A DNA stretch of 64,000 nt from contig OZ242296.1 in assembly GCA_965207735.1 (NCBI GenBank), positions 2,432,001 to 2,496,000 of the forward strand, read 5' to 3'. Each line of letters begins with the position of its first letter. Position 1 is the first letter of the stretch. Origin of the DNA: Candidatus Versatilivorator sp. (GTDB lineage: Bacteria; Acidobacteriota; Terriglobia; Versatilivoradales; Versatilivoraceae). A program made the translations under genes and the position numbers. The notes below the pieces were generated by a model that saw nothing but the letters and a program-made list of their open reading frames with translations, ran no database searches and was not told where the DNA came from. Shown in pieces: positions 4,236 through 59,500 of the stretch.

Positions 4236-4290
4236 CTTGCCTGGAACACCGCTGTTTCACTCCGTATGATCCGTCCCGTCGTCGGGGACG
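4236..4290. repeat. Minimal IS110-end-like repeat plus GC hairpin
   Basis: CTtgcctggaacaccgctgtttcactccgtatgatccgtcccgtcgtcgggga matches the 59223-59280 unit and the IS110 termini. Confidence 0.65.
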
Positions 4291-4304
4291 GAGAGCTGCC
4301 AGTC

Positions 4305-5237
4305 TCAATCCAGACCCAGGACACTAGACCACTTTGCCAGGAGCTGCCGGGTGACTCCGGCCCCGCCGCACACCACCACCAGGACGTTCTGCGCTCCTCG
4401 CAGCGGCTCCGACCGGTCGTAGACACCCGCCAGGGCTGCGCCGCAGGCCGGCTCCACCAGCAGCCGGTGGTCGTCTGCGAAGCGCAGCACCGCTCCGACG
4501 GCGGCCCGGTCCGACACCACCCAGGGGAGAACTTTGTGGGACCTTGTCCAGGCCAGCGCCCGGGAAGCGACCTGGCGGGCCCCCAGGGAGGTGGCCAGCG
4601 AAGCGATGCCCGGAAGAGTCACCAGCCGCCCGGCTTGGACCGACCGATGGAACGAGTCGGCCCCCTCGGTCTCCACCGCGCAGACCGGCACATCCCGCCA
4701 GCCGGCCTGGTGCATTCCCTCCAGCACGCCGCACAGCAAGCCGCCGCCGCCAACCGCCAGCACCACCAGGTCCGGCTTCACCCCGGCCTCCCCGACTTCC
4801 CGCACCAGGCTGGCGTGGCCGGCCCAGATCCTGGAATCGTCAAAGGGGTGGATGTATGCCGCCTCCTGCCGGCGGGCCAGATCCAGGGCCACCGCGTGAG
4901 AGTCGTCCCAGGCGGCGCCTTGCTGCATGACCGTGGCTCCCTCACCGCGGAGCCGCTCCAGCATGAGGCTCGAGGTCGTCTGCGGAACCACCACCGTGAC
5001 GGGCAGGCCGAGTTGGCGGCCGGCGTAGGCCACGGCATAGCCGGCGTTGCCCCCGGATGAGGCCACCAGGGCTCGGGCCCCTTCGGACAGGGCCGACTGG
5101 CAAGCGTGGCCCACACCCCTGATCTTGAAGGAGCCGGTGGGCTGAAAGGCCTCCAGCTTGAGCCAGACCCGGGCGCCCAGCCGCGCGCCGAGGGGCCCGG
5201 ACTCCCAAAGGGGAGTTTGGTGGTGCAGTGGCTTCAT
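4305..5237 (-). CDS. PLP-dependent serine/threonine dehydratase
   Basis: True start MKPLHHQTPL at 5237 (the ORF track over-extends it); GSFKIRG PLP lysine, SSGGNAG, VGGGGL, VVVCGG. Confidence 0.88.
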   Translation of the reverse strand: MKPLHHQTPLWESGPLGARLGARVWLKLEAFQPTGSFKIRGVGHACQSALSEGARALVASSGGNAGYAVAYAGRQLGLPVTVVVPQTTSSLMLERLRGEGATVMQQGAAWDDSHAVALDLARRQEAAYIHPFDDSRIWAGHASLVREVGEAGVKPDLVVLAVGGGGLLCGVLEGMHQAGWRDVPVCAVETEGADSFHRSVQAGRLVTLPGIASLATSLGARQVASRALAWTRSHKVLPWVVSDRAAVGAVLRFADDHRLLVEPACGAALAGVYDRSEPLRGAQNVLVVVCGGAGVTRQLLAKWSSVLGLD

Positions 5238-7156
5238 CGGAAATGTCTCCTCGGGACGACCGGCAGGATGAGGTGTGAGGGACGGCCGGCATCCAGGTAG
5301 ACCGTGTTGCGGGCTGCCTGGGAGCGGGTGTGCCTTCCCATGGGCTCGCCGGTGTTGGGGTTGACGTCGAAGCGAGGGAAGTTGCTGCTGGAGACGTCCA
5401 CCCGCATCCGATGGCCGGCCTTGAAACAGTTGCTGGTCGGCGGCAGGTCGATCCGGATGGCATAGACCTCGCCGGGCCGCACGGGCTCTTCCTTTTCGAA
5501 GCTGTCGCGGTAACGGACCCGGAGGATTCCGTCCGCCAGGTTCAGATCGTAGCCCTCCGGATAGTCCGGGTTGGGAGGGTAGACGTCCAGGAGCTTGACG
5601 GTGAAGTCGGTATCCGGCGTGGTAGAGGAGATCCACAACCTGGCGGTGATGTGGCCGGTCAGCTCGACATCCTCCTGCAGGGGCGGCGTCTGAAAAACCA
5701 GCACGTCCGCCCGTTCCGACAGGCGGGGGAAAGGAGGACGGCAAGCAAACAGCCCCGGCTGCTCTTTCTGGTCGGCCGCCCCTTCGGTCACCAGGCTCCG
5801 CATCCGTGCCCTGGCGGGAATGAACCCGGACCAGGGGGACTGCGCCAGCTCGCCCAGGGGAGCCAGCTCGAAGATACTGGTCATGGCCCCGGCAATGGTG
5901 GGCACCGGATGGGAGGGGTCGAAGTCGAAGCTGGCAGGGGCCTCGCCGGGAAGCGGCGGGGCGGGACTCAACCCTCCATCGCCGTGCAGGTAATAAGGAC
6001 AATAGCGGGTGCGGGCCAGCGGCCACTCGTTCTCGCAGCGCCACTCCCCTCCATGGCTCAGTCTGCCCTCGGCGGTTTTCCTGCCGCTGCCTCCGCCCAT
6101 GCGGAAGAGACGTACCGGGGGACTCGGGTCGGGAGGCGGGGGCGGGTCCTTCAGCCAGCCTTCGAACCAGGAGAGCCGTTCCCGGTTGTAGCGCTCCCGC
6201 CCCCAGGCCGCCTCCGGGCCGAAGTCGACGTCTCCCGCAAAGGAATATCCAGCGCGCATACCCCCGTGGGTCCAGGGCCCCATGACCAGCCGCTGCGGCG
6301 TCCGGTTCTGCCGGGCCATGGCCTGGTAGTAGCGGGTGGTGGCGATGGCGAAGGGATCGTACCAACCGCCGCTGTAGGTGGCCGGGATGTCGGCGTGGCG
6401 CCGGAAGTGCGGCTCGAAATCGTTGCTCTCAAGCCGCCAGAACTCGTCGTAGGCTCCCCGGCGATAGTAGTCCAACAGGATCTTTTCCAGGTTGGGAACC
6501 TCCTCCAGGGGCGTGCCACCCGGCTGGAACGGCGTCCGCCGCACCCAGTCTCCCATCCGCTCCATTCCCTGCAGCACCCGCTGCCGGGCTGCAGGGTCGT
6601 CCCGAATTTCCTGGGCGTCATAAGCATGCAGAAAGAGTGCGCCGAACATGTGGAGCTGCATGGCTCCACCCCAGCGCACCTGGTGAGCGTAGCTGTTTGT
6701 GGGGCTGACGTCGGGCCAGATGGCCCGCAGGTGGGGTGGGCGGTAGAGGGCCATGTGGGTTTGGACCAGGGCCAGATGGGAGCTGCCCATGGCGCCCACC
6801 CGGCCGTTCGACCAGGGCTGGGCCGCAATCCACTCCACCGTGTCGAATCCGTCGGTCCCGGCCGTTTCGTTTACCGTGTGGAAATACTGGCCGGTGCCCT
6901 CGGAACCGTGTCGGCCGCGCAGGTCCTGCAGCACCAGTACGAAACCTCTCGGGGTGAAGTGGTGGGCCACCTCGTCGATAAGCCACTCCGCCTGCTTGTC
7001 GTAGGAGGTGCGCACCAGCAGGGCCGGAAAGGGGCCCGGCAGCACCTCTCCGTCGCGGGCCGGCCGGTAGATGTCGGCGGCCAAGCACACCCCATCCCGC
7101 ATGGGGATCATCAGATCCTTGAATATGGCTACCTGGTAGGGCTCGGAAGTTGCCAT
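5234..7156 (-). CDS. CocE/NonD family hydrolase
   Basis: IPMRDGVCLAADIYRP, QDLRGRHGSEG, GSSH nucleophile elbow, GGWYD, GPWTH, SSSNFPRFDVNPNTG. Confidence 0.92.
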   Translation of the reverse strand: MATSEPYQVAIFKDLMIPMRDGVCLAADIYRPARDGEVLPGPFPALLVRTSYDKQAEWLIDEVAHHFTPRGFVLVLQDLRGRHGSEGTGQYFHTVNETAGTDGFDTVEWIAAQPWSNGRVGAMGSSHLALVQTHMALYRPPHLRAIWPDVSPTNSYAHQVRWGGAMQLHMFGALFLHAYDAQEIRDDPAARQRVLQGMERMGDWVRRTPFQPGGTPLEEVPNLEKILLDYYRRGAYDEFWRLESNDFEPHFRRHADIPATYSGGWYDPFAIATTRYYQAMARQNRTPQRLVMGPWTHGGMRAGYSFAGDVDFGPEAAWGRERYNRERLSWFEGWLKDPPPPPDPSPPVRLFRMGGGSGRKTAEGRLSHGGEWRCENEWPLARTRYCPYYLHGDGGLSPAPPLPGEAPASFDFDPSHPVPTIAGAMTSIFELAPLGELAQSPWSGFIPARARMRSLVTEGAADQKEQPGLFACRPPFPRLSERADVLVFQTPPLQEDVELTGHITARLWISSTTPDTDFTVKLLDVYPPNPDYPEGYDLNLADGILRVRYRDSFEKEEPVRPGEVYAIRIDLPPTSNCFKAGHRMRVDVSSSNFPRFDVNPNTGEPMGRHTRSQAARNTVYLDAGRPSHLILPVVPRRHFR

Positions 7157-9258: not shown

Positions 9259-9269
9259 TGGATCCCGTC

Positions 9270-9330
9270 CTTTCCTGGAACAACCGCTGTTTCGCCCCTT
9301 TTGAGCCGCCCCGTCGTACGGGACGGCGGC
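9270..9330. repeat. Minimal IS110-end-like repeat plus GC hairpin
   Basis: CTttcctggaacaaccgctgtttcgccccttttgagccgccccgtcgtacgggacgg, homologous to the 4236 and 59223 copies. Confidence 0.55.
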
Positions 9331-9338
9331 GCGCCTAC

Positions 9339-11865: not shown

Positions 11866-14800
11866 ATGACCCACAGGAAGAAGACACCCTGCTCGTTGAC
11901 GGTTTTGCTTCTGACCGGACTTGGCATTTCTGTCAGCCCCCATCAAGTCCTGACCCGCACGGCCGAAGTCTCGAGGGCTCTGAACCCAGTTCTGTCGCAC
12001 TACGAAGTCCTTCTTCTTGAACCCGGTGAAATCGAACTGCAGGTTCGCACAACCGGAAAGTTGCGGTTCCGGTTCAACGAGACCGACTTCTATATCAACC
12101 TCGAGCCTCACAACATGCGGGGTCCCCACTACCGGTCTGTGGCGACGGGCTCCGGAGGGCGGCGGCGGTCGCTACCTACTCAGCCGGTGCACACCTTCAA
12201 GGGAGTGCTGGCGGGAAGCGAAGACACCAGAGGCCGATTCAACCTCACCGATGACGGGGTCGAGGGAGTCGTCTTCGCCCCCGAGGGCCGGTACTACATG
12301 GAGCCGTTGCGGAACTACCTCCCCAGCGCCCCGGCGGGAGAACTGGTGGTCTACAGGGAGGCAGACATCAAACAGGGAGAGGACCTAAAGTGCGATGTGT
12401 CGCTGCCCCAGCGCCTGCAGATGGGGGTGGCACGGGTGGAGGACCAAGCGGAAACTGTCTCATCCACCAATCCGACGAATTACGTGGTCGACGTGGCGAC
12501 AGAAGCCGATTACGAGTATGTGCAGGAAATGGGAGGAGTGGTCCAAGCCAACCGCAACATTGAGGGCATCCTGAACTATGTGGAGGGGGTTTTTCAGCAC
12601 GAGCTGCTGGTTCAACTGCAGATCAGTTTCCAGCATGCCTGGGATACGGAAGAGGATCCCTACACCGCAACGGACTTACCCCATTTGTTGGTAGAGCTAG
12701 ATGATCATTGGATAGAGAATTTCCAAGCAGCGAGAGACTCTGACATCATACATCTCTGGACTGGAAGGTCCTTCGCCAGACGGGATGGAAGAGCTCATGG
12801 GAGGGTGTGTGGCAGATCAGGACGTTACGCTAGTTCTGCCTCAGAGCACCAAAATTACCTGGCAAGAGATTACGCCATTCCCGCTCATGAAATCGGGCAC
12901 AATCTCGGAGCCAGCCATCCCTGGGAGCAAATCCCGCCAGTCGCAGCCTGCTCTCGAACCGTCATGTCTTCAGGTGCGGGAGAGGTGACATTCTGCCAGT
13001 TCTCTCGAGACGAGATTGCCCGGCACCTCGCACGGCACAACAGTTGTCTCGACACTCAACCCATCACACTGCAGGCACCAACAAGTCTCTCAGCTCAGGC
13101 AGCTTCCTCATCCGGCATCAACCTGGCCTGGCGGGACAACAGCACCAACGAAACGGGCTTCATTGTGCAGCGTCGTAGGCTCGGTTCCGACAAGTGGGTT
13201 CAGATCGGAACGACGGCAGCCGATGCAGAAACCTATTCGAGTGACGGATTGTTTCCCCATTCCACCTATATCTACCGTGTGCAAGCCTTCAATGAGAGTG
13301 GATCGTCCGCCTACTCGAACGAAGCTGCAGCAACCACTCTGGCTGGAACCTCGACCGGTAACGACTGGACAATTCATACGATCGCTGGGAGAACAGATAA
13401 TGACGGAGACAACGGCGCGGCGGGCCGGGCACGGCTAGGCGATCCCCAAGGCATAGCGTTAGACAAGTCGGGAAACCTCTATATCGCCGATTCCTTAAAC
13501 AACCGGATCCGGCGGGTGGACACCTCGGGCACGATTACGACGGTTGTGGGGTCGGGGAAGAGAGGTTTCAGCGGGGACGGCGGACCGGCCGTAGCCGCGC
13601 AACTGAATTGGCCCTTCGGCGTGGCGGTGGACGGGTCGGGAAGCCTGTATATAGCAGATTATGCGAACCAGCGAATCCGGCGAGTGGATAGCTCCGGGAT
13701 CATCACCACCATCGCGGGCAACGGGGGGAGAGGCTACGGCGAAGATAGTGGCGAACCAGCGATTCGGGTTTCACTCACTTGGCCGTACGGCGTGGCGGTG
13801 GACACCTCGGGCAACGTCTATATCGCCACTACGGGCGACCACAGGGTTTTTAGGTTGGACATCTCCGGATTCATTACCACCGTCGCGGGGACCCGGGAGG
13901 CCGGCTTTAGCGGGGACGGAGGCCCTGCAGTCGATGCTGCCCTGGATTGGACCCCAGCAGTGGCGCTTGACGGAGCAGGCAACGTCTATATCGCCGATGG
14001 CGGGAATCGCCGGGTGCGGCGGGTGGACACCTCCGGGACCATCACGACCGTCGCAGGATCGGGGGAGGAGGGCTACGGCGGAGACGGGGGTCCGGCTATC
14101 AGGGCACAGCTGGGCGTTCCCGTTAGCTTGGCTGTCGACGCGGAAGGCAACCTCTATATCTCTGATTCCTCAGAGCGCAGAATCCGGCGGGTGGATGCGA
14201 CGGGAAACATTACGAACGTAGCGGGAATTGGGGAAAGCGGCTACCGTGGAGATGGGGGACCAGCCGTCAGGGCATGGCTCTACGATCCCTTCGGGATAGC
14301 CCTTGACAAGCCAGGCAACCTCTATATCGCCGATAGCGGGAATCGTCGGGTGCGGCGGGTAGACACCTCCGGGATCATCACGACCGTCGCAGGATCGGGG
14401 GAGGAAGGCTACGGCGGAGACGGGGGTCCGGCCGTTGAAGCACAACTAGGCGGAGCCGTCCGTGTGGCCGTAGACGGCTCGGGGACTCTCTACATCAGCG
14501 ATGCGCAGTATCACCGCATCCGAAGGGTAAACGCGTCTGGAACCATCACCAGCGTTGTGTCGGAAACAATCCAGCCCCAGGGGTTGGCCGTAGACGGTTC
14601 GGGAAACCTCTATATCGCGCAGTTTACGAGAGTCCTTCGATTAGACACCTCGGGGACCGTCACCACCGTCGCAGGAACCGGAGAGCTCGGCTTCAGCGGG
14701 GACGGAGGTGCGGCAGTCGAGGCAAGACTGAACGGGCTCCGAGACGTGGCGATAGACGCTTCGGGAAATCTCTACATCGCCGATTCCTACAACCAAAGAA

Positions 14801-17175
14801 TCCGGCGAGTGGATACTTCGGGTATCATCACTACCGTCGTAGGAATTGGCCCGGGAATTGACGAAGGAGGTTCCGGCTTGGCAACCGAGGCCGTGCTAAA
14901 CACGCCTGGAGGCGTAGCGGTGGACCGCTTGGGCAATCTTTACATCGCCGACACAATCAAGAACCGGATAAAGCGGGTAGACACCTCAGGCATCATTAGC
15001 ACCATTGCGGGGACAGGGGAAGAGGGCTTCAGTGGTGACGGTGGCCCGGCGGTTGAGGCGGATCTGTACCATCCTCAAGGAATAGCGGTCGACCTCTCAG
15101 GCAATGTGTACTTCGCCGATCAGGGGAACCATCGCGTTCGCATGTTGACGAATCCTTCGACCGCCACTCCGCCTTCGACTCCCGCCAACCTGACGGCAAA
15201 GGCGGTTTCTGCCTCAGAGATCAACTTAAATTGGCAGGACACCAGCAGCAATGAGATAGGGTTTAGAGTACAGCGACGGCTAGAAGACTCTACCGGTTGG
15301 GTTCAGATTGGAACCGTAGCGGCCAACGCGACAACATTTTCGGATGTCGGCTTATCGCCCGGCACCTCCTATATCTATCGGGTACAGGCCTTCAACCGCA
15401 CGCACTTCTCCACCTTCTCTAATGAGGCGCGGGCAACAACCGTGGCAGTATTGCCCCCGACCCTCATCCGATTCACCCCGGCAATCGGGGCTGTAGGCAC
15501 AAGGGTCACCTTGACCGGAACCCATTTTCTCGGCACCAGTGATGTCCGGTTCAACGGAGTCAGTGCCGTTGTGTTCGAGGTTGTATCGGAGACCAGCATT
15601 GAGGGGGTAGTGCCGCCGGGGGCAACCAGCGGCCCGATCAGCGTGGTGACTCCTGGAGGAATGGCGGAAAGCGCCGAACCCTTTACGGTCACAACCAGAA
15701 TCCAGAGCCGCCTGTTCGTGCCCGTCGTACTGCGGTCTCAGGGGCGTACCCCCGGTTCCTTGTTCACTTCCGAGCTAACTCTCACCAACCGGGGATCGAC
15801 GAAAGCAAACATCGGCTACACCTATACGGCGGCCTTCGGAGGAGGCTCAAACACGGCTGTAGATTCCCTGGAGCCTGGGGGGCAACGGGTCATTCCCGAC
15901 GCCATTGCCTATCTGAAATCCCTGGGCGTTCCCATCGGAACCGGTTCGGCAGGCGGCACGCTGGCGGTCGATTTCTCCAACCTTTCCTCTCCTTCAGATG
16001 CCGCTGTCACCGTGAGAGTCACCACACCGGTCGAACAGGGACGGGCCGGTCTGGCCTATGTGGGACTGAATCCTGCCGGCCTTAACACTACCCCTGATCT
16101 TATCACTGGACTGCGGCAGAATAGGCAGGATCGCTCCAACGTGGCTCTTCAAAACGCGGGGGATGCCAGCGAGGGAAGCATCACTCTCAGAGTAACGGTT
16201 TTCTCCGGAGACTCGCCCGCGCCGGAGCAGGGTTTTATCTTGCCGGATCGAACCCTGGCACCGGGAGGGTTCCATCAATTCGACGGCATTCTAAACATGG
16301 CCGGTTTTGAGAATGGCTTTGTGAAGGTGGAACGGGTGAGGGGGACCGCGCCGTTCTATGCCTACGGGGTCGTCAATGACAATTTCAACTCGGACGGTTC
16401 TTTCGTCTTTCCGGTCACAGCCGCGGCGCTGGCAGGCAAGCTGCAACAGACTCTGCCAGTGATCGTCGAGACGGTGGAGTTCTCAAGCGAGCTGACGGTG
16501 ACGAACTTTTCCGACCAAGCCAAGACGCTTCATTTCAGCTTCGTCGCCGACGGACTCACGACCCGCGACCGCACGGCCCGATTCAGCCTTACGCTCGAAG
16601 CTGGCCATCAGCGGATCATTCCCGAAGTCATCGACAGCGAATTGCGGCAGAAAGGCGTGGAAGGCCTGCGCTCGTCAAAGGGCGGTCTGGCCGGCGCCCT
16701 GTTCGCCACGGTGGAAAGCGGCGATATGAGCGGGATCGTAATCGGGGCACGCACCAGTTCCTCTGACGGCGACGGCGGCCAATACGGCGTCTTCTACCCA
16801 GCGGTGCCGGACGGGGCGGCCTTCACTACCAGCGCATGGGTCGGCGGCCTGCAGCAGGACGGGGAGAACCGCAGTAACCTGGCCCTGGTCAATACCGCTG
16901 TAATCGACGACACCGACAGCGTCTTTGACCTCGATATCTATGACGGGGAGACCGGCAGGCGGGTCCAAACGGTCACGACCGAACCGCTTCCCGCCCGGCG
17001 CTGGCGCCAGATCAACGCGATCCTAGCCGACCATGCCCCCGGAACCGGGCAGGGCTATATTCGGATCCGCAAAACTTCCGGCAGCAACCCGTTCCTGGCC
17101 TATGGGGTGGTCAACGACGGCGGAACTCCGGGCGAGCGTAGCGGCGACGGAGCCTTCGTACCGGCCCGGGAATAG
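11866..17175 (+). CDS. Large secreted multidomain protein: reprolysin-like (M12) zinc protease, FN3, NHL repeats, FN3, IPT/TIG, repeated C-terminal module
   Basis: Signal-like N-terminus; HEIGHNLGASH zinc motif; two WxDxSxNExGF..Y.YRVQAFN FN3 domains; about 10 GNLYIADxxNxRIRRVD repeats; GTRVTLTG..F IPT domain. Confidence 0.88.
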   Translation: MTHRKKTPCSLTVLLLTGLGISVSPHQVLTRTAEVSRALNPVLSHYEVLLLEPGEIELQVRTTGKLRFRFNETDFYINLEPHNMRGPHYRSVATGSGGRRRSLPTQPVHTFKGVLAGSEDTRGRFNLTDDGVEGVVFAPEGRYYMEPLRNYLPSAPAGELVVYREADIKQGEDLKCDVSLPQRLQMGVARVEDQAETVSSTNPTNYVVDVATEADYEYVQEMGGVVQANRNIEGILNYVEGVFQHELLVQLQISFQHAWDTEEDPYTATDLPHLLVELDDHWIENFQAARDSDIIHLWTGRSFARRDGRAHGRVCGRSGRYASSASEHQNYLARDYAIPAHEIGHNLGASHPWEQIPPVAACSRTVMSSGAGEVTFCQFSRDEIARHLARHNSCLDTQPITLQAPTSLSAQAASSSGINLAWRDNSTNETGFIVQRRRLGSDKWVQIGTTAADAETYSSDGLFPHSTYIYRVQAFNESGSSAYSNEAAATTLAGTSTGNDWTIHTIAGRTDNDGDNGAAGRARLGDPQGIALDKSGNLYIADSLNNRIRRVDTSGTITTVVGSGKRGFSGDGGPAVAAQLNWPFGVAVDGSGSLYIADYANQRIRRVDSSGIITTIAGNGGRGYGEDSGEPAIRVSLTWPYGVAVDTSGNVYIATTGDHRVFRLDISGFITTVAGTREAGFSGDGGPAVDAALDWTPAVALDGAGNVYIADGGNRRVRRVDTSGTITTVAGSGEEGYGGDGGPAIRAQLGVPVSLAVDAEGNLYISDSSERRIRRVDATGNITNVAGIGESGYRGDGGPAVRAWLYDPFGIALDKPGNLYIADSGNRRVRRVDTSGIITTVAGSGEEGYGGDGGPAVEAQLGGAVRVAVDGSGTLYISDAQYHRIRRVNASGTITSVVSETIQPQGLAVDGSGNLYIAQFTRVLRLDTSGTVTTVAGTGELGFSGDGGAAVEARLNGLRDVAIDASGNLYIADSYNQRIRRVDTSGIITTVVGIGPGIDEGGSGLATEAVLNTPGGVAVDRLGNLYIADTIKNRIKRVDTSGIISTIAGTGEEGFSGDGGPAVEADLYHPQGIAVDLSGNVYFADQGNHRVRMLTNPSTATPPSTPANLTAKAVSASEINLNWQDTSSNEIGFRVQRRLEDSTGWVQIGTVAANATTFSDVGLSPGTSYIYRVQAFNRTHFSTFSNEARATTVAVLPPTLIRFTPAIGAVGTRVTLTGTHFLGTSDVRFNGVSAVVFEVVSETSIEGVVPPGATSGPISVVTPGGMAESAEPFTVTTRIQSRLFVPVVLRSQGRTPGSLFTSELTLTNRGSTKANIGYTYTAAFGGGSNTAVDSLEPGGQRVIPDAIAYLKSLGVPIGTGSAGGTLAVDFSNLSSPSDAAVTVRVTTPVEQGRAGLAYVGLNPAGLNTTPDLITGLRQNRQDRSNVALQNAGDASEGSITLRVTVFSGDSPAPEQGFILPDRTLAPGGFHQFDGILNMAGFENGFVKVERVRGTAPFYAYGVVNDNFNSDGSFVFPVTAAALAGKLQQTLPVIVETVEFSSELTVTNFSDQAKTLHFSFVADGLTTRDRTARFSLTLEAGHQRIIPEVIDSELRQKGVEGLRSSKGGLAGALFATVESGDMSGIVIGARTSSSDGDGGQYGVFYPAVPDGAAFTTSAWVGGLQQDGENRSNLALVNTAVIDDTDSVFDLDIYDGETGRRVQTVTTEPLPARRWRQINAILADHAPGTGQGYIRIRKTSGSNPFLAYGVVNDGGTPGERSGDGAFVPARE

Positions 17176-18830: not shown

Positions 18831-18907
18831 GGGCCTGTAGCTCAGCAGGATAGAGCAGCGGTTTCCTAAACCGAAGGTCGGGGGTTCGAATCCCTCCAGG
18901 CCTACCA
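18831..18907 (+). tRNA. tRNA-Arg(CCT)
   Basis: GGGCCTG acceptor stem, TAGCTCAG D-arm, anticodon loop TT-CCT-AA, GGTTCGAATCC T-arm, encoded CCA. Confidence 0.96.
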
Positions 18908-18940
18908 TTCACCTGAAGTGTCAGAGTCTATCAGGAAAAC

Positions 18941-20401: not shown

Positions 20402-20480
20402 TGCCCGCGGCTGCGAGGTCCTAGCGCCCGTGACGTTCTAAGGCTTTCCTCTCAGAAAGCGCGGCGGTGCATCGAGACCG

Positions 20481-20830
20481 GTGTATGCAAGATTTGCAGA
20501 TGGTTCGGATGAAAACGCCGGCAGATTCACCAAAGAGATCAACTCCTACTTCATTGAGGAGGGCATCGGTTGGCAGCTCGTGGATGGCCAGGTAGTCACG
20601 AGGGGACCAGAGTCGTTCGAATCCGTCGTGACGGCAGCGACGGCAGCCCTAAACAATACCGGCCGGCCAACGGCGGCTGGTCACCTGCATGAAGCACTAC
20701 AGGATCTGTCGCGCCGTCCGAATCCTGATCTGTCAGGTGCCATATACGACGCCATGGGTGCGCTGGAGGCCGTTGCGCGTGACCTCGTCGGCAATCCCAA
20801 TGCGACACTTGGCCAGATTCTCGTCCGAAG
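20481..20830 (+). pseudogene. Internal fragment of an AbiJ-like abortive infection protein
   Basis: YFIEEGIGWQLVDG..RG.ESFE..HLHEALQDLSRRP.PD.SGAI..AMGALEAVAR; no convincing start, and similarity ends abruptly. Confidence 0.5.
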
Positions 20831-43462: not shown

Positions 43463-43569
43463 CACCGGACCCCCGCCAACGTACCGACGCGACGGAATCA
43501 CCTGGGAGCCCTCGTTCCATGACCTCGTCACACAAAGGACACGAAATTGCAGAAACATTTGGGTGCCGA

Positions 43570-43690
43570 TTGTCATTGAAACAGGTCCGTCTGTCTGTGC
43601 TTATTCGTGTTGATTCGTGTGCATTCGTGGTTCGTCTTTACTAACGATCGGCTGTTTTTCCTCAAATGATCCGCACGGAAGACCAGGCTT
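43570..43690. repeat. Degenerate IS110-end-bounded unit containing ATTCGTG repeats
   Basis: tgtcattgaaacag...ctgtttttcCTcaaatgatccgcacgg..ggCTt; the tail matches the array spacer at 48259-48293. Confidence 0.5.
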
Positions 43691-46222: not shown

Positions 46223-46458
46223 GGCTCTGATTGGCTGTGGGAAGAGGTCCCGGCACCGGCGTTCCCGCGGGACCGGCCACTGCAAGAAAGGGGGACATTA
46301 TAGGTCGCCGGCAGACACGATCACAAGGTCCCTGCCCGATCCCCTGGCAAACCCCAACCCCGCTCTGCCGTGCGGACCATGCGACAGCGTGACAACGCAT
46401 TCTTATGGGCGATCGGGAGCAAGAACGATGTCCGGCTTGTCTGAAACAACCCCGCAGT

Positions 46459-47853
46459 TCAAGCGGCTGCGATTTGTGGAACCAGGTTGAAACCAAGAGA
46501 CTTAGCAGCATCTTTGAGGCCCGCGAGGCGTCGTCGCCGGAACCGGTCCTCGTAGCACGCTTCCCCGATGTCGATGTAGTCCTGGCCGTAGCGCAGCATG
46601 CGGTAGACGAGAACGGCCAGCCGGCGGGCCATGGAGAAGACGGCGACGGTCCATCCCTTGTGGCGGGCCTTGCGACGGAAGGCGGCCCCCAGAGCGGTCT
46701 TGGAGTGCTTCAGAGAGACGGCTGCCATGCGCAGGACGGCGGCGGCGCGAGTAGACCCGGTGCTGTTGGCCTTCTTGTAGTGGAGCGGCTTGCCTGCGGA
46801 GACGGCCGTTTTTGGAGCCAGGCGCAGCCAGGATACAAAGTGCTTCTCCGAGGGGAAGGCCGTCAGGTCGAGGCCGGCCTCAGTCAGCAGGGTCAGGGCC
46901 GCTTCGGTGCCGATGCCGTCGATGCGCGTCAGATCGACTCCGGCAAAGCGCCACAGTTCGGTGCGCAGGTGGTGCCCACCGCGGCGGCGAATCGCCTTTT
47001 CCTTGATCGCATTGGGATGCTTCGGCACGGGCTGGTCGTGGCGCTCCACCGGTTGCAGCGCCTGGATTTCCTCCAGGAAGCGGGCCTCATAGGCCGCAAT
47101 CTCGCGTTGAGTCATGTCGTAGAGCTTCAGCGCCGACTTGAGGTTGAACAGATGCTCTTCTCGCCAGTTGCCTCTGAGGTGCTCGGCAAACTCCCGGCTG
47201 GACTTCTTGCACCGTCGGTCCCGCAGACCCGCCAGACGGACCGGGTCCCGTTCTCCGTTGACAATCGCCCGCACGATCGCTATCCCCGTCTGACCGGTCA
47301 GATCGGTGACCGCACGATGGATCTGGACGTTCATCTGATCCAGCGCCTTCTGCATCCACTGCACAAAGCGGGTACTCTCGGCCCCCAGAGTGCTCAGTTG
47401 CCGGTGCAGGGTCCGAACCCGGACGATCGCCTCGTGCGGACGGAAGGATCCCCGCAGCAAGCCGCAACTGTGCAGCAACTGGATCCACTGGCAGTCCCGC
47501 ATGTCGGTCTTGCGGCCCGGAACGTAGCGCAACTGCCGGGCGTTGACCAGCAAGACCTCGATGCCGCAGGACTCCAGCAGTTCGTAGAGGGGAATCCAAT
47601 ACACGTTGGTGCTCTCCATCGCCACCGACTCCACCCCTTGCTCCAGCAACCAGTCGGCCAGTTGCTGCAGTTGCTCCATGGTGGTGCCGAAGGTGCGCAC
47701 GTTCGGCTTCCCTGGGGTCACCTCCAGAGCGCACACCCAGTGCTCCCGACTCCCCAGGTCGATCCCTGCCACCTCGGGGTGGATCCGCGACAAGGCTGTC
47801 GAACGGCTGCGCTTCTTCTTCGTCTTCGTGTTGACTTTCCTGCTCTTTTGCAT
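46459..47853 (-). CDS. IS110 DEDD recombinase/transposase
   Basis: GID, MES, KTDxxD RuvC-like DEDD residues; IDGIG and SAGK in the C-terminal domain; SD GAGGAGG. Confidence 0.96.
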   Translation of the reverse strand: MQKSRKVNTKTKKKRSRSTALSRIHPEVAGIDLGSREHWVCALEVTPGKPNVRTFGTTMEQLQQLADWLLEQGVESVAMESTNVYWIPLYELLESCGIEVLLVNARQLRYVPGRKTDMRDCQWIQLLHSCGLLRGSFRPHEAIVRVRTLHRQLSTLGAESTRFVQWMQKALDQMNVQIHRAVTDLTGQTGIAIVRAIVNGERDPVRLAGLRDRRCKKSSREFAEHLRGNWREEHLFNLKSALKLYDMTQREIAAYEARFLEEIQALQPVERHDQPVPKHPNAIKEKAIRRRGGHHLRTELWRFAGVDLTRIDGIGTEAALTLLTEAGLDLTAFPSEKHFVSWLRLAPKTAVSAGKPLHYKKANSTGSTRAAAVLRMAAVSLKHSKTALGAAFRRKARHKGWTVAVFSMARRLAVLVYRMLRYGQDYIDIGEACYEDRFRRRRLAGLKDAAKSLGFNLVPQIAAA

Positions 47854-47874
47854 GAGATTGGCCTCCTCGGCGGC

Positions 47875-48060
47875 GATCACTCCGGCCCGAGTTGGCGTGG
47901 TCGTTCGGATTCTTGTCTTGAGGAGAGCTTCCCGGGAAGCCTCACTAATGAATGATGACCTGCTCGGACCCAGACTTGCCTTGGGGCACGGGGCACCAAT
48001 GCTGGAACGGGGCGTAGCTGCCGGAGTCTCGCCAGGTGCTTATTCTTTCACAATGATCCG
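47875..48060 (-). ncRNA. Candidate IS110 bridge/seek RNA
   Basis: About 200-nt non-coding upstream end with two stem-loops containing internal loops (GCACC/GGUGC; GGUC/GACC with GCUUCC/GGAAGC) and 7-nt matches to the element end and the flank. Confidence 0.6.
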
Positions 48061-48108
48061 TTGTTTCACCCTCGAATGATCCGCCCGTCGTGGGGGGCGG
48101 GGGCGGGA

Positions 48109-48258
48109 CTTGTCTGAAACAACCGACAAAAGACAAAAGAAAAAGACTTATCCACGAAGGGGCGCGAAGGACCACGAAGGGCCACGAAGGCGCTGAGGTT
48201 GGCCGCGACGGGGTGCCAAGTTCGCGAAGGGTTGATCGATTTCCGATTGTTTCACTCT
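48109..48258. mobile_element. Non-autonomous IS110-ended unit (MITE) 1, 150 bp
   Basis: CTtgtctgaaacaacc...gattgtttcactCT; internal CACGAAG repeats. Confidence 0.75.
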
Positions 48259-48291
48259 ATGTATGATCCGCACGGCAGGGCGGGGACCCGG

Positions 48292-48441
48292 CTTGTCTGA
48301 AACAACCGACAAGAGACAAAAGAAAAAGACTTATCCACGAAGGGGCACGAAGAACGACGAAGGGGCACTAAGGCGCTGAGGTTGGCCGCGACGGGGTACC
48401 AAGTTCGCGAAGGGATGATCGTTTTCCGATTGTTTCACCCT
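48292..48441. mobile_element. Non-autonomous IS110-ended unit (MITE) 2, 150 bp
   Basis: Close copy of 48109-48258 with the same termini. Confidence 0.75.
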
Positions 48442-48661
48442 CGTTTGATCCGCCCCGGGGTAGGGTGGCGTGGGCAGGGCTTGCGGGCAAAGGGCGCCGG
48501 TCGGCGTTCAGAGAAGTCGCCCGCCGGCAAGAAGTGCAAGTCTGCCAAGATCCGAGACGCTCGGCGATTGCCTGTGCTAAGCTTCCCTCCCGAATCGAAG
48601 CCGGAGTTGGCCAGCCCGAATCGCTCCGGAATTTTCGAGTCCCAACCCCGCGAGCAGTCCC

Positions 48662-53813: not shown

Positions 53814-53850
53814 GGGTGAGTTACCTCCTTGTCCGCTGCTCCTCGGAGGA

Positions 53851-56703
53851 TCAGCGGTAGTCGACGGACACGGAACGCAGCACCGGGGCGCCGGTGCCGT
53901 TGGGGCCGACCAGCGTTGCCTTGAACTGCAGGAAGCGGGTCGGGGTACCCATTTCTTTCAGCGAAACTCGGCGGCCGGCGTAGAGACTGCCTTCGCCGTC
54001 CGGCCCCCTCCAACCGGCTTGGTGTAGGGCTTCGATGCTGTCGGCCCCTCTCACCTGGAACTCGATGGCCGAGGCAAAGGGCGTTTCCCCTTCCCAACCG
54101 AGGGTCTCGAAGCGCACCGGCGTGCCGGCGTCGAAGACTTCTGAAATGTAGTCGTAGCGGTCCCCTCGATCGGCGACGTGCCCCACGTCCACCCCGGCCA
54201 GGAAATGGGGCCCGAGTCCCGGCAAAAGCTGGCGCCGCTCGGTCGAGAAGCCCTGGGGACTCCCCTCGTAGAGAAAGGACTCGTTGCGGTGGGCGCTCTT
54301 CACCTTGTGGCAGGCGAACAGCAGATCGGTGAGGCCGTCGTTGTTGAAATCGGCGGCCATCACACCCGAACCGGACTGGGTGGGGATGTGGGTGACGCGG
54401 GACCCGTCGAACTCGCCGTCGGCGTTCCAGTAGATGTAAGAGGGGTGGGAGCGGGTCTCGCCCGCATGATAGCTGGTGGCCACGATATCCAGGAGGCCGT
54501 CCCCGTTGAGGTCGGCCACGGCCACCCCTTCCGGTCCCATGGCGGGCAGCCGCGTCACCCGTTCCGCCTCATATCCGCCGACCGCCCCCCAGTAGACGAG
54601 CACGTCGCTCTCGCGGCCTCCCTCGGCTGACATCAGGTTGGTCGCCAGCACCTCCAGCCAGCCGTCCCCGTTGAGGTCGGCGATCTCGGTGGCCACCGCC
54701 AGGCCGGCGGGCAGGGTCTTCCGGTTGCCGTTATCGAAGCCGTCGGGACCGTTCCAGAAGATCACCAGCTCGCGGTTTACCGTCGGAAACACTACGTCCA
54801 GCCAGCCGTCTCGATTGAGATCTGCAATGCTGTGGCAGCGGACACCATCGATCTGAAAAGTGAAGCGATGGTTGTCGGCAAACCCCATGGGACCGCCCCA
54901 GTAGAGGTCGGTTCCATGGCTGGCGGCATATTCGCTGAGGAGCAGGTCCAGGTAGCCGTCCCGATTGAAGTCGGCCGGCCGGGCCGAAAAGGCCATCTCG
55001 GAGGAGACCACGGTCTTGCGGGCCGAGCTGAAGCCCTGGGGCGAACCCCAGTAGACCGCCGATTCAGGACCTCCCATGTAGATGTCCACCCACCCGTCGT
55101 TGTCCAGATCGGCGGAGGAATACCCCTCCCCCGGAGAGCCGAAGGGGTGGTAGAGATCCAGGCGCTGGTCCACGCTGTATTTCCCCTGCTCGTTGCCCCA
55201 GTAGACGTAGGCCGGCACCGGGTCCCCGGCGGATCCGTCGATGCGATTCACGAAGACCAGGTCCTTCTTGCCGTCCCGATCGAAGTCGGCGCTGCCGGCG
55301 GCGGCGGCCCCCAGGGTGGTCAACTCCAGCCGGCGGGCCGTATCGAACCCCGCCGGGCCGCCCCAGTAGACATAGGAGGGCGCCCGGTGGGAACGGGCAT
55401 TGTGCTCGTTGCTGAAGACCAGGTCGGAATGACCGTCACCGTTCAGATCCTCGATGAGACAGTCGGTGGGATTCAGGGTGGGTAGAACGGTTCGGCGGTG
55501 AGGCTCGAATCCCTCGGGGCTGTTCCAGAAGATGGGGGAGCCGCTCCCCGGACCGGGGGCGGCATGGCCGGACTTCTGGGGGCCGTTGGCAAAGACCAGG
55601 TCCGGCATCCCGTCCTTGTCGAGATCTCCCACCGCCACGCTGCTGGCCGCCACGGTGGGCAGCTCCAGGCGGCGCTCGGCGCTGTAGCCCTGGCTGGATC
55701 CCCAGTAGACGAATGAAGGAATGGATTCGCTGTCGACATCGGTATCCCACTCGCTGCGGTCGTCGGGCTCACGCATGAGCGGACGGTAGCGGTTGGCCAG
55801 AACGATCTCGGGGACCTGGTCGCCGTTGAGGTCGGCCAGGGCCACGGCCGAGCTGCGCTGCCCGGGCAGCAGAGTACGCCGGTCTGCAGAATAATTTCCG
55901 CCGGCGCCGCCCCAATAGATCATGGCGCCGCCGAGCTGTGCGCCCTTCCCCTCGTTGGAAAAGACGATCTCGGGAGTTCCGTCCCGGTCGAGGTCGGCGA
56001 CGGCCACACCTGTGGCCGCGGCGGTGGGCAGGGACTGCCGCCGTTCGATGGAAAACCCCTCCTTGGAACCCCAATAGAGAAAGGAGGCGTTCTCGGGTCC
56101 GGATGGCCGTCCGCCGGCCCAGGCGCTGTTGGCGAAGACGATCTCCGGGTAGCCGTCTCCATTGAGGTCGGCGATGGCAGCCGCCATGCCTCCCAGAGTG
56201 GGCAGCTCGGTTCTTCGCCCGGTGTCAAAGCCCTGGGCTCCGCCCCAGTAGATGAAGCTGTCCAGGTTGCTCTTGATCCCGTTGCGTCCATTGACCACCA
56301 CCAGGTCGATGAAGCCGTCCCGGTTGAGGTCGCCCAGGGCCTGGCCGGTTCCGCCGCCGCTGGGAAGACGGGTGCGGCGCCCGACGTGGTTCTCATCCAC
56401 GCCCCAGTAGATGAAGAGATCGATCTGCTCGTTGTTGTCGTGGGTGTTGGGGAGGACGATGTCGATGAAACCGTCGCGGTTGAGGTCCCAGAGGTTGATG
56501 AGCTTCACCTCGCCGGCCGCGGTGACGTAAGTGTTGGCGCCGGCGTCGCCCAGGCTTCCCCGGCTGAAGTCCAGGAAACTGGAGACGGTCCAGCGCTTGG
56601 CGGCGGTTGTGTCTTGGGACCGGTGTCGAGACCCGCCCCACACCAACAGGGCACAGAAAACCACAAGACCCGAAAACATCATTCTCTTAGATGTTGCAGA
56701 CAT
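53851..56703 (-). CDS. Secreted FG-GAP/VCBS repeat protein
   Basis: N-terminal hydrophobic segment; many DLNxDG..D(L/I)V..N and S.(I/V)YWG repeats. Confidence 0.88.
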   Translation of the reverse strand: MSATSKRMMFSGLVVFCALLVWGGSRHRSQDTTAAKRWTVSSFLDFSRGSLGDAGANTYVTAAGEVKLINLWDLNRDGFIDIVLPNTHDNNEQIDLFIYWGVDENHVGRRTRLPSGGGTGQALGDLNRDGFIDLVVVNGRNGIKSNLDSFIYWGGAQGFDTGRRTELPTLGGMAAAIADLNGDGYPEIVFANSAWAGGRPSGPENASFLYWGSKEGFSIERRQSLPTAAATGVAVADLDRDGTPEIVFSNEGKGAQLGGAMIYWGGAGGNYSADRRTLLPGQRSSAVALADLNGDQVPEIVLANRYRPLMREPDDRSEWDTDVDSESIPSFVYWGSSQGYSAERRLELPTVAASSVAVGDLDKDGMPDLVFANGPQKSGHAAPGPGSGSPIFWNSPEGFEPHRRTVLPTLNPTDCLIEDLNGDGHSDLVFSNEHNARSHRAPSYVYWGGPAGFDTARRLELTTLGAAAAGSADFDRDGKKDLVFVNRIDGSAGDPVPAYVYWGNEQGKYSVDQRLDLYHPFGSPGEGYSSADLDNDGWVDIYMGGPESAVYWGSPQGFSSARKTVVSSEMAFSARPADFNRDGYLDLLLSEYAASHGTDLYWGGPMGFADNHRFTFQIDGVRCHSIADLNRDGWLDVVFPTVNRELVIFWNGPDGFDNGNRKTLPAGLAVATEIADLNGDGWLEVLATNLMSAEGGRESDVLVYWGAVGGYEAERVTRLPAMGPEGVAVADLNGDGLLDIVATSYHAGETRSHPSYIYWNADGEFDGSRVTHIPTQSGSGVMAADFNNDGLTDLLFACHKVKSAHRNESFLYEGSPQGFSTERRQLLPGLGPHFLAGVDVGHVADRGDRYDYISEVFDAGTPVRFETLGWEGETPFASAIEFQVRGADSIEALHQAGWRGPDGEGSLYAGRRVSLKEMGTPTRFLQFKATLVGPNGTGAPVLRSVSVDYR

Positions 56704-56888
56704 GGGCTTACTCCTTGCCGGAAACAGACCAGACCTTGTCAGCCGTCAACTGGGTAGAATCCTCGAATGATCGGGCTCCGTCATTCAGTAGCAAGCCTTC
56801 CCGTTTGTCAATAGAATTTCTCAAGTGCCGCCCCTATAATCGGACAAGGAATTCGCTCCTCAGTGGTGCATTTGATCCCAAGCGATCT

Positions 56889-58198: not shown

Positions 58199-58208
58199 GT
58201 TCCGGAGG

Positions 58209-58964
58209 CTATCCCGGCCTGACCGAGGCGACCCTGTCCAGGTAGGCGCGACCGGCCTGCTCAAGCCAGGCGTTGTAGTTGGTCAGAAAGAACCGCACTC
58301 CCAAATCGTAGTAGTGCTGCAGTTTGTCCTCGAAACCCAGCGCGCCCGCCGTCCTTCCCGAAGCCGCGATCTGTCGCATCGCCCCTTCGACCACCGCTTC
58401 CACCTTGGGGTCCCTGTGCCTGCCGGCCATGCCCATGGTCTGGGCCAGATCCCCGGGTGCGACGAAAAAGACATCGATGTGGTCGACCGACAGGATTTCG
58501 TCCAGATTCTCCACCGCCTGCATCTCTTCGATCAGGACGATGACCAGGGTCTCCAGATTGGCCTGCCCAAAATAGTCGGAGCCGCCGTAGGACCTCCTCC
58601 CTGAAAAGATGCCGCGCCGGCCAACCGGCGCAAAATAGGCCGACTCCACCACCTGCTCCGCCTCGGCCCGGGTGCTGACGTGGGGGACCACGATGCCGTT
58701 GGCGCCCAGGTCCAGGGTGCGCGTGATCACTCCGGGATCGTTCTGGTGCAGGCGGGCCACCGAAGCCATTCCCCACAGGTCACAGGCCCTGGAGAGATCG
58801 CCGATTCCTCCCCAGTTCACCGAACCGTGCTCCCCCTCCAGCCAGATCCCGTCAAAGCCCATAGGACCCAGAAAGTCGATGGTGTCGCTGGTATTGCTGT
58901 GCCCTCCGACGGCAATGGCCACCTCACCCTTGTTGAGCTTCTCCTTGACTCGATTCCCTCGCAT
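58209..58964 (-). CDS. HpcH/HpaI aldolase family protein
   Basis: GFD..WLEGEHG, LDLGA.GI.VPHV, LIE, FVAPGDL. Confidence 0.9.
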   Translation of the reverse strand: MRGNRVKEKLNKGEVAIAVGGHSNTSDTIDFLGPMGFDGIWLEGEHGSVNWGGIGDLSRACDLWGMASVARLHQNDPGVITRTLDLGANGIVVPHVSTRAEAEQVVESAYFAPVGRRGIFSGRRSYGGSDYFGQANLETLVIVLIEEMQAVENLDEILSVDHIDVFFVAPGDLAQTMGMAGRHRDPKVEAVVEGAMRQIAASGRTAGALGFEDKLQHYYDLGVRFFLTNYNAWLEQAGRAYLDRVASVRPG

Positions 58965-59222
58965 GCTCTTTTCGTCTCCTTGGTTGCTCGGTTGGACCTC
59001 CCCGGATGGATCTCTTCCGCAAGGCGGCCAGCCTATGGCCACGGCCCAGGCTGGTGACGATATCCCAAGACCGCACCAGCGGCAACAGAACGTTTCTTGC
59101 AGAACGTTTTGCGATGGACAATTAACATCGATGAACAGGATATACAGGATTATTGGTCGATGGTCTGGGCTGCAGGTACCGAGACCGCAGAGTGCATCCG
59201 GTGTGTTCGACCATCCCCTTGC

Positions 59223-59500
59223 CTTGTCTGAAACAACCCTGTTTCACCCTCGGATGATCTGCCCCGTCGTGGGGGGCAGGGGCGCCCCTTGCCTGAAACA
59301 AACGACAAGAGACGAAAGACAAAAGACTTATCCACGAAGGGGCACGAAGAACGACGAAGGGACACTAAGGCGTTGAGGTTAACCGCGACGGGATACCAAG
59401 GTCACAAAGGGATTATCGATTTCTGATTGTTTGACTCTCGAATGATCCGCACGACAGGGCGGGGGCGGGACTTGTCTGAAACAACCGAAAAAAGACAAAA
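59223..59500. mobile_element. Second array of IS110-ended units (28-bp minimal, 151-bp full, truncated third)
   Basis: Units 59223-59250, 59288-59438 and 59471-59500, separated by TGATC-containing spacers. Confidence 0.75.

Follow-up and report, generated by a model that had tools for sequence, protein, structure and literature searches.

Minimal noncoding IS110 derivatives in a “Ca. Versatilivorator” genome and their predicted recognition as one folded DNA strand

The strandedness of IS110 intermediates and the way in which directionality is set are currently debated. In IS621 (PMC11208160, PMC11208158, PMC13626964), the recombinase has DEDD and Tnp domains, the core is CT, and the noncoding region upstream of the gene forms two pseudosymmetric loops, with right guides complementary to the CT strand and a handshake base equal to the donor base. 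The IS110 element described here resembles IS621 in all of these features, those of the RNA by prediction. Unlike in IS621, it is the right guide that is long (7 nt), its left target counterpart being weak; what the left donor slot matches is an inverted motif on the CT strand, about 30 nt off and behind a hairpin; and the gene and RNA are read opposite to the CT strand, with inverted repeats of about 7 bp and a protein of 464 amino acids.

Several other systems share parts of this organization. In the available portions of the report on ISPpu9/MITEPpu9 of Pseudomonas putida (PMC12288879), modular circles were shown experimentally, and an AG core on the coding strand, a 43-bp A box with a hairpin, a 16-bp B box, and a nonautonomous module next to the IS all have counterparts here; the ends in its supplement likewise appear to place a 6-bp inverted repeat 5 nt from the core, with 13 nt separating hairpin and repeat. 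ISPpu9 differs in targeting REP sequences and in having 8 MITE copies, the likeness drawn here being one of end layout; no guide analysis was found in those portions. ISPpu10 (bioRxiv 10.64898/2026.03.19.712850) pairs a strict right target guide with a left one that tolerates mismatches, and a DNA stem-loop is important to it, but this stem-loop lies in the target and not in the donor end. For CazIS110-1 (bioRxiv 10.1101/2025.10.25.684509), the part of the preprint available describes top-strand copy-out and single-stranded circles that can integrate; unlike the donor proposed below, CazIS110-1 favors double-stranded DNA (single-stranded donors being about 20-fold weaker at one junction), and a donor hairpin is not mentioned in that part (0 occurrences of “hairpin” or “stem-loop”). 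Expanded IS110 loci (bioRxiv 10.64898/2026.08.14.744561; 10.64898/2026.08.31.748434) have tandem noncoding units at IS110 ends, one-sided donor matches, and single-strand excision; in contrast to those loci, target and donor guides have converged here, and units lacking a transposase are scattered over the whole genome.

The DNA analyzed (the window) is a 64,000-nucleotide stretch from “Ca. Versatilivorator” sp. It holds one of the genome's 10 copies of a full IS110 element, 1,673 bp at 46436 to 48108 on the minus strand, with CT cores at 46436-46437 and 48109-48110 on the plus strand. The recombinase (464 amino acids; 46459 to 47853, minus strand) contains the DEDD RuvC-like and Tnp domains of the family (PF01548 and PF02371; NF033542) with GIDLG, AMEST, KTD..DC, and SWLRLAP motifs; no sequence match was found in the PDB. 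The donor arm, 48061 to 48108 on the plus strand, consists of an inverted repeat (48061 to 48067), a distal motif (48074 to 48080), a hairpin (48081 to 48100), and an 8-nt linker (48101 to 48108). In tandem with it on the same strand are a 183-bp MITE unit (48109 to 48291) and a second unit (48292 to 48479) whose right junction is approximate. Units span one CT core to the next, with CT-TGYCT and an inverted repeat at one end and an inverted repeat, the motif, the hairpin, and the 8-nt linker at the other, and all 10 IS copies retain the hairpin and adjoin a head. At the position of this IS, the congener G002 has a MITE head and no IS. Empty sites close precisely at CT, and the two exact ones, both in G002, indicate that recombination uses a 2-nt core and duplicates no target sequence, as in the IS110 family. 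The subterminal inverted repeats are those of the IS1111 group (7 to 17 bp; at least 7 bp in 37/48); the long noncoding region or RNA downstream of the gene that characterizes that group is not present, the RNA lying upstream and the 3′ end measuring about 25 bp. The integrase at 59820 is of phage type.

Contigs from RNA libraries span the IS in 4 runs, carrying neither strand nor end information and possibly reflecting DNA carry-over. Runs X15 to X20 contributed small shares that we do not take to indicate habitat. A circle junction would resemble a tandem IS copy, and a sigma-70 promoter scan gave no match.

The original prediction placed seven short IS110-end sites in the window, and these motifs are present there at frequencies far above chance: head and tail profiles with scores above 14 gave 346 and 295 hits on both genome strands versus 4 and 5 on one reversed strand. 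Four of the sites proved to be nonautonomous derivatives, 60 to 65 bp long, of the IS110 at 46436 to 48108, and the other three (43570, 53828, and 56714) are not minimal elements. Only the one at 59223 to 59287 (plus strand, like the others; 65 bp) is intact; it is followed on that strand by a 183-bp MITE unit (59288 to 59470) and then by another head at 59471 that runs into a different repeat. The intact element has an extra CTTGC in front (59218 to 59222), and an unexplained extra CTTRY occurs on 16/130 first heads. The element at 4236 to 4296 is decayed, with an uncertain right end, and adjoins the Shine-Dalgarno sequence of the gene at 3069 to 4226; the head-like sequence occurs in 7/11 congeners examined and is missing from G002, G009, G005, and G001. 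Also decayed are the elements at 9270 to 9332, which sits at a native CTT upstream of a hydantoinase A gene, and at 29170 to 29215, which has lost its hairpin and is present in G002 and G008 as well. A decayed longer relic of about 120 bp, present in G002 as well, occupies 43569 to 43690 (plus strand). By congener comparison, 56714 to 56727 (plus strand) is a native head-like sequence over a Shine-Dalgarno sequence, a potential target holding no element: it is native in 5/6 genomes, without a tail, and G008 has a MITE at that spot. Positions 53828 to 53853 hold no element and are ordinary Shine-Dalgarno or intergenic sequence (head score, -18.6), conserved in 6/6 genomes. The reported overlap with Shine-Dalgarno sequences is real in this genome, but the bases are genomic and not, as had been proposed, supplied by the element end: GGAGG is kept in the 4/11 congeners without the head at 4236, and CTT at 9270 is kept in G011 and G001, both without the element. 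The proposed boundary must also be moved, since the hairpin past TGATCC lies inside the element, which makes the CT ahead of TGYCT the junction; the second “CC-CT” is none. Both the empty sites and all 10 copies of the IS rule out inner boundaries (CT to CC-CT), and no second conserved core was seen by eye in homologues.

The suggestion that the sites are collapsed IS110 MITEs was borne out, as both ends are shared with the resident IS110 and the units are noncoding, multicopy, and polymorphic among genomes. Exact copies of the minimal motif number 11 in G000, 82 in G005, and 49 in G009; those in G005 form tandem runs of up to seven with 60-bp spacing. Among strong heads, 136/266 follow a tail or hairpin. 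G009 has many units and no close transposase match. Judged from sequence, the minimal units are likely moved in trans by the recombinase and bridge RNA of the resident IS110. An alternative offered earlier, that TGAAAC-N6-GTTTCA is the operator of a local regulator, draws on its being a palindrome at times near gene starts. The palindrome is instead the two subterminal inverted repeats joined by loss of the interior: its halves are IS ends, which 1.6 kb separates in the full element and about 140 bp in MITEs, they covary between IS ends in distant homologues, and their presence among congeners is patchy. We find an operator scarcely credible here, and as the origin of the palindrome it is refuted.

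The main idea of the original prediction, that the sites are aimed at ribosome-binding sites or mark off gene blocks for integron-like shuffling, is largely refuted, and we hold it to be very improbable. Two minimal elements do touch Shine-Dalgarno sequences, any array junction is formally donor and target at once, and nine head-to-tail spans of 6 to 12 kb enclose ordinary genes. With gene starts from a home-made hexamer gene finder, some of them wrong, 3/23 intergenic first-in-array minimal elements lie 3 to 20 nt from a start, versus 3.4% of control sites; two of those three are the window's own, and without the window's two the enrichment is gone (1/21; p = 0.52). Strong heads at that distance number 6/108 (not significant). 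The actual bias is toward gene ends, 44/108 strong heads lying at most 40 nt after a co-oriented stop. Co-orientation holds within the window (5/5 arrays), but it is chance: orientation along the genome is random, with neighboring arrays on one strand in 96/191 cases and runs of at least five arrays six times, and there is no leading-strand bias (91/192, with GC-skew extremes that are rough). Congeners keep the same order of genes across the sites, and the 23 units of 1.5 to 4.2 kb hold other mobile elements (22/23) or a syntenic block (1/23). Neither of the two insertions specific to the window ends at co-oriented junctions. In the comparison with congeners across the window's sites and in the units of 1.5 to 4.2 kb, no gain or loss of gene-bearing cassettes was found. 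Integron attC sites are recombination sites used as folded single strands; they have a tyrosine recombinase, gene cassettes, and no RNA guide. These last three features are inapplicable here, and the likeness would survive only at the level of mechanism, in the predicted folded single-strand site, and not in gene shuffling.

A bridge RNA with target-binding and donor-binding loops is predicted at 47879 to 48030 (minus strand). The consensus fold of 43 homologues, with 96% of cells paired and double changes in 21/31 pairs, points to an IS621-like two-loop structure; Rfam contained no match, and single-sequence folding was uninformative (z = +1.18). By computation, the element has the two-loop noncoding RNA of IS110, with guides that covary with target and donor. 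The right donor guide, AGACAAG (47912 to 47918; all guides on the minus strand), is complementary to the element end at 46436 to 46442, and donor guides match the element's own end in 33/34 IS copies from six genomes and in 36/40 homologues. The right target guide, AGGCAAG (47975 to 47981), is complementary to CT-TGCCT, which is also the element's own end, and is followed by the handshake base; the base past the target guide equals the core-adjacent donor base in 39/45 (shuffled, 20.8), as in the IS621 handshake guide. A weak left target guide of about 4 nt lies at 48002 to 48005, which rules out an unconstrained other target flank. The score of target guide against flank is partly circular because the core was picked by that match; the fixed linker length gives independent support for the cores.

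In this lineage, the right target guide is identical to the right donor guide or one base off, and it matches the element's own end in 9/34 IS copies from six genomes. Such self-matching copies have an own-end-like sequence at all 23 displayed junctions, and a retargeted relative with the guide GGTCAG lies at GGT(C/T)AG in 9/9 copies. Insertion under a self-matching guide would recreate the target, so tandem stacking of units into MITE arrays is likely to have arisen in this way. Against this stands half-match insertion at donor ends, known without guide convergence from the preprints on expanded loci (bioRxiv 10.64898/2026.08.14.744561; 10.64898/2026.08.31.748434). Self-matching and retargeted relatives within one genus offer a simple account of how an RNA-guided element can fill a genome with tandem MITE units by the hundred.

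Covariation with DNA is seen in three segments of the RNA. The left-donor-guide slot, ATCATTC (47950 to 47956), is complementary to the distal motif at 48074 to 48080 and not to core-adjacent bases. Across about 45 homologues it covaries with the motif beyond the hairpin, on the same DNA strand that the right guide pairs with, and lacks a match to core-adjacent DNA, whereas in IS621-type elements the left donor guide pairs with the core-adjacent bottom strand. When the DNA motif was defined without the RNA, a single RNA window stood out (240/266 matches versus 179.7; z = 10.6; next best, 4.7); the match is exact in 21/38, and 18 distinct variants gave 115/126 versus 79.4, although such shuffle comparisons overstate the signal because homologues are related. 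On a quick tree, about ten separate branches carry joint changes, as counted by eye. No significant canonical pairing linked the slot to the target flank (1002/5000), and the linker is not complementary to the motif (67/336). The commonest MITE motif, GTATGAT (130/288), has one mismatch to the resident guide. The spacings are nearly fixed: the linker is 8 nt in 46/48, the hairpin has 5/5 pairs in 44/48, the motif-to-repeat gap is 6 nt in 37/48, and the inverted repeats measure at least 6 bp in 46/48, with a covarying extension (99/144 versus 42.6). Among homologues of 34 to 47% identity, 6/36 match the architecture loosely, a count without a control that we do not take to demonstrate it there.

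The slot-motif identity could instead reflect sequence conversion or RNA-RNA pairing with an antisense RNA that reads across the element end as Asr9 does in ISPpu9, with arrays arising from a donor half-match alone. Both ISPpu9 and ISPpu10 are reported to have antisense RNAs, donor-half-match insertion and tandem noncoding units are published, and among slot mismatches C opposite A (9) is commoner than wobble-type (5), an excess of C-versus-T mismatches that suits this explanation. We judge it quite unlikely, as the slot sits exactly at the 5′ position of the donor loop in a covarying fold and the relative whose target guide differs while its donor guide is unchanged lies at its new target, and not at its own end, in 9/9 copies.

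We somewhat favor the proposal that these minimal noncoding IS110 derivatives, likely moved in trans and likely self-stacked, are recognized as one fold-back DNA strand. In this model, the 7-nt right target guide would make most of the target choice, assisted by the weak 4-nt left guide, and each insertion would leave a new target at the element's own end because target and donor guides are nearly the same. Copy-out of the CT strand would then yield a circle, a step demonstrated for CazIS110-1 and IS621. Where the ends are joined, the inverted repeats would pair as an outer stem, the hairpin would serve as the inner one, and the loop between the two stems would have the motif on one side, facing the linker, core, and TGYCT. 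Both of these sides would pair with the donor loop of the RNA, the motif replacing the missing bottom strand, and the 60- to 65-bp unit would be the smallest piece retaining all of these parts. The fixed spacings, together with slot pairing on the same strand as the right guide, suggest that one folded strand could mimic a donor duplex.

Folding of naked junction DNA was no better than that of shuffles (z = -1.0 to -1.9), and the CT strand had the more stable fold in only 16/48. Tests of G·T wobble did not favor the CT strand in inverted-repeat positions 1 to 7 (2 versus 3) or in 43 local hairpins (4 versus 10). Also counting against a folded donor, circles still formed by PCR when the ISPpu9 hairpin was mutated, according to the available portions of that report (PMC12288879). 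The single mismatch of the commonest MITE motif to the resident guide and the excess of C opposite A among slot mismatches weigh against the proposal too. Folding energy and wobble without a strand preference would be expected if the donor of this self-targeting MITE system were ordinary double-stranded DNA and the slot paired with the distal motif in an R-loop, in a protein-induced cruciform, or only during excision; such a donor explains the covariation without a free single strand and agrees with the preference of CazIS110-1. It leaves unexplained why the 8-nt linker and 6-nt motif-to-repeat gap match donor-duplex arms and why the canonical left-donor match beside the core is missing, and we consider it unlikely, though less so than an antisense or conversion origin.

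A literature search found no description of a folded donor of this kind. One published survey rebuilt donor sites from 25-nt windows and could thus miss a motif 27 to 34 nt from the core. The broader hypothesis, that in a widespread IS110 clade the bridge RNA has been rewired so that only one strand of the donor is read, with the copied-out circle folding into a duplex mimic, seems to us evenly balanced. The clade comprises relatives with about 55% or more identity to this recombinase, in Acidobacteriota, Myxococcota, Krumholzibacteriota, and many metagenomes. This clade is a sharp test in the debate on strandedness: should pairing of the left donor guide indeed involve the distal motif on the strand that is cleaved, the natural donor would be a folded single strand. 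Bridge recombinases would then have a new mode of recognition, and the folded donor would be the RNA-guided counterpart of an integron attC site, with insertion direct from single-stranded DNA and the linear copy a poor donor. The mobile unit would shrink to a 60-nt dumbbell that stacks on itself when target and donor guides converge, and ends of about 60 nt might offer a route to the programmable insertion of single-stranded cargo.

The complete 5.26-Mb genome containing the window carries 10 copies of an IS110 recombinase gene, the one studied here lying at 46459-47853 on the minus strand; "CT strand" below denotes the window's plus strand, the gene and its RNA being read from the opposite strand. 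All 10 IS copies start with CT-TGYCT-GAAACA (the head). At the other end every copy has TGTTTCA, then a TGATCC motif, then a hairpin and finally a linker (the tail), beyond which lies a further head-like sequence. Tail-to-head distances span 44 to 51 nt at 122 internal junctions. In a comparison of 0.8 Mb of the congener G002 with this genome (G000), unique orthologous flanks existed for 15 of the 136 first heads in G000 and for 16 of the 22 in G002; two exact empty sites (161 and 584 bp) closed at CT, the remainder being shared, nested, or ambiguous. The layout of the IS copies and these empty sites therefore place the second CT, originally read as a junction, inside the element, as do the internal junctions.

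Tails that continue into the start of a hairpin number 288. A head occurs within 25 nt of 20 of them, at 100 to 160 nt from 157, and at 160 to 1,100 nt from 32; 10 belong to the IS itself, and 69 are more distant from a head. A looser pattern recovered 40 minimal elements (14 young and 26 decayed), and the 13 complete young units are each 60 or 65 bp. The exact minimal motif is present in 6 of 14 genus genomes, with 82 copies in G005, and the hairpin-head junction in 13 of 14. An extra CTTRY precedes 16 of 130 first heads genome-wide (in the window, at 59218-59222), which may reflect a second register, offset by 5 nt. In two congeners, G009 and G011, junctions and minimal elements are numerous; because this query found no close transposase match there, the mobiliser is apparently either lost or missed by the query. 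A group II intron and three DDE-type insertion sequences repeatedly interrupt MITE units (loci L068, L070, L065, L066, and L067).

Of the seven IS110-end sites listed in the original prediction, 59223 is an intact minimal element, 4236, 9270, and 29170 are decayed ones, and 43570 is a longer relic. The sites at 53828 and 56714 are native sequence. At the 4236 locus, GGAGG is present also in the four congeners without the head, and in other congeners varying repeat units come after the same head; at 9270, two congeners that lack the element nevertheless have the CTT. Shine-Dalgarno sequences simply include the core's complement. L041 is the orthologue of 9270 in G002; its two junctions have CTTTCC, the head variant of that locus, in place of the MITE consensus, a hint that conversion accompanied insertion. 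Immediately past the 59223 array, a phage-type integrase and an IS1380-type transposase occupy 59820-63443, a region in which the five compared congeners diverge.

The sites had also been read as targeting ribosome-binding sites. Gene calls were made with a simple in-house finder. By these calls, a start lies 3 to 20 nt downstream of 3 of 23 first minimal elements in intergenic DNA (220 of 6,491 control sites; p=0.04) and of 6 of 108 strong heads; the enrichment among the minimal elements disappears once the window's own two are removed (1 of 21; p=0.52), and the targeting reading is rejected. Gene ends are another matter: a co-oriented stop precedes 44 of 108 strong heads by no more than 40 nt, versus 4.5% of control sites, although these controls include long intergenic regions and the start-versus-stop contrast (12 versus 44) is the fairer figure. 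The stop preference is absent among minimal elements alone (10 versus 9). In 10 of 130 cases the head itself provides the TGA that ends the upstream called gene in frame, as at 2555334, 3807003, and 891265 of G000 contig C1. In co-directional gaps, heads run along transcription more often than against it (47 versus 18; p=0.0004), and genome-wide, 96 of 191 neighbouring arrays share a strand.

Nor, in the window and among units of 1.5 to 4.2 kb, do the sites delimit integron-like gene cassettes. All 13 congeners have matches to the genes flanking 4236 and 9270, with collinear order in each of the five that were compared, and the remainder of the window is collinear in five of five. No co-oriented head/tail pair was found at the ends of the two window-specific insertions, which span ~11.4-17.4 kb and ~18.9-25.2 kb. 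The units of 1.5 to 4.2 kb other than IS110 number 23; 22 carry repeated open reading frames only, represented by DDE transposases or reverse transcriptases of group II introns, and the other holds a block syntenic in five of five congeners and flanked by two separate MITEs. The cassette reading is rejected on collinearity, mobile-element cargo, and insertion ends lacking the pair; the original observation as a whole is partly confirmed. Also in the window, 11866-17175 holds a large M12B-peptidase/NHL-repeat gene whose family is multicopy; it is absent from the locus in the five compared congeners and has no IS110 junctions at its borders. A block past tRNA-Arg (18831-25160; Fic, SulP/STAS, and PQQ dehydrogenase) varies among congeners. 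The window has a further, unrelated family of repeats at 29300-29860 and 35510-35910, built of tandem 62-bp units and long inverted arms.

The non-coding region upstream of the recombinase gene (predicted bridge RNA, 47879-48030) folds, across 43 homologues, into an outer stem and two pseudo-symmetric loops, with 96.2% of cells paired (slid controls, 31 to 61%; 0 of 500 shuffles) and double changes at 21 of 31 pairs; G.U pairs favour the coding-strand sense. Six genomes contributed 35 IS copies, of which 34 could be scored; the 3' guide of the second (donor) loop equals the element's own end in 33 of 34, and that of the first (target) loop does so in 9 of 34. For the 26 self-matching copies, all 23 junctions displayed are own-end-like. 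A relative at ~80% identity has the first-loop guide GGTCAG and is located at GGT(C/T)AG in nine of nine copies; this retargeted relative (L006 and L031-L038) inserts into 7-mer tandem repeats of the TGGTCAG type, which are plentiful in the intergenic regions here. The wider homologue set had 57 loci, of which 54 were parsed and 44 are distinct; there the first guide matches the flank at 4.68 of 5 positions (shuffled, 1.68), a partly circular score, and the second guide equals the element end in 36 of 40. After two rows were hand-corrected and two mis-parsed rows dropped, the base that comes after the first guide agreed with the core-adjacent base of the donor in 39 of 45 (shuffled, 20.8) and with that of the target in only 9 of 41. 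The available text on IS621 describes the same base relation in its handshake pattern (PMC11208158), and both guides are therefore right guides. A weak left target guide is also detectable (118 matches versus 92.9 expected, with 0 of 2,000 shuffles as high), positions -1 to -4 matching in 19, 19, 16, and 17 of 44 (expected, ~11).

With target and donor right guides converged, each insertion would regenerate a target. This differs from the loci of 10.64898/2026.08.14.744561, for which the accessible part of that report claims that insertion regenerates none. Right guides are nearly converged also in L157, L189, and L222. Half-match chemistry at donor ends, outlined in 10.64898/2026.08.31.748434 as far as available, may contribute to the arrays. 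In Bryobacterales (L154:2626-2955; also L166 and L167), a transposase-less module of ~330 bp lies directly at an IS110 3' end, with its own A-box and a bridge-RNA-like region whose target guide matches that IS's end; by sequence it looks like a guide-only passenger.

The left donor guide of IS621 pairs with the bottom strand adjoining the core (PMC11208160 and PMC13626964, in the portions available), whereas the corresponding slot here (47950-47956) is complementary to a CT-strand motif just past the hairpin (48074-48080). The match is exact in 27 of 45 and holds at six or more of seven positions in 43 of 45; among 18 distinct variants, 115 of 126 positions match versus 79.4 expected. With DNA geometry as the only criterion for the motif (38 of 39 rows), a scan of all RNA windows in both senses put the slot first (z=10.6; runner-up, 4.7); slot and motif changed jointly on about ten branches, counted by eye on a quick tree of 50 proteins. 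Geometry was compared across 48 junctions (four loci skipped): the linker is 8 nt in 46, the hairpin stem a perfect 5 bp in 44, the motif-to-inverted-repeat gap 6 nt in 37, 5 nt in 7, and 7 nt in 4, and the inverted repeats at least 6 bp in 46, with a covarying extension. No complementarity was found between linker and motif at these junctions. Both donor guides would bind one strand, which would require a U-turn; the hairpin would supply it and the inverted repeats would close the opposite side, so that a single strand would mimic a donor duplex with a pre-opened loop. Integron attC provides a comparison for such a folded-donor site.

Other observations weigh against a folded donor. Folding of naked junction DNA is not significant, the CT strand is the preferred fold in just 16 of 48 junctions, and wobble pairs do not favour it; most of a 23-to-2 wobble excess toward the other strand comes from position 8, which is not part of the conserved stem. 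The majority of local MITE motifs are one base off the resident guide. In ISPpu9, circles still formed after hairpin mutation, according to the accessible text of PMC12288879. The homologues are related rather than independent samples, and the architecture is documented for the close clade. On the other side, a folded single-strand donor would fit CazIS110-1, for which the available portion of 10.1101/2025.10.25.684509 describes top-strand copy-out and weaker single-stranded donors.

Stringent right guides, target stem-loops, IS110-dependent MITEs, modular circles, and tandem growth have been published (10.64898/2026.03.19.712850, 10.64898/2026.10.21.760802, and others). In a literature search that covered few subscription papers and the main text of preprints, we found no account of a distal motif being read by a donor guide from across a hairpin, nor a description of converged target and donor guides. 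These sequence comparisons point to a variant of IS110 bridge recombination that makes a specific, testable prediction, namely that the donor would be recognized in folded form.
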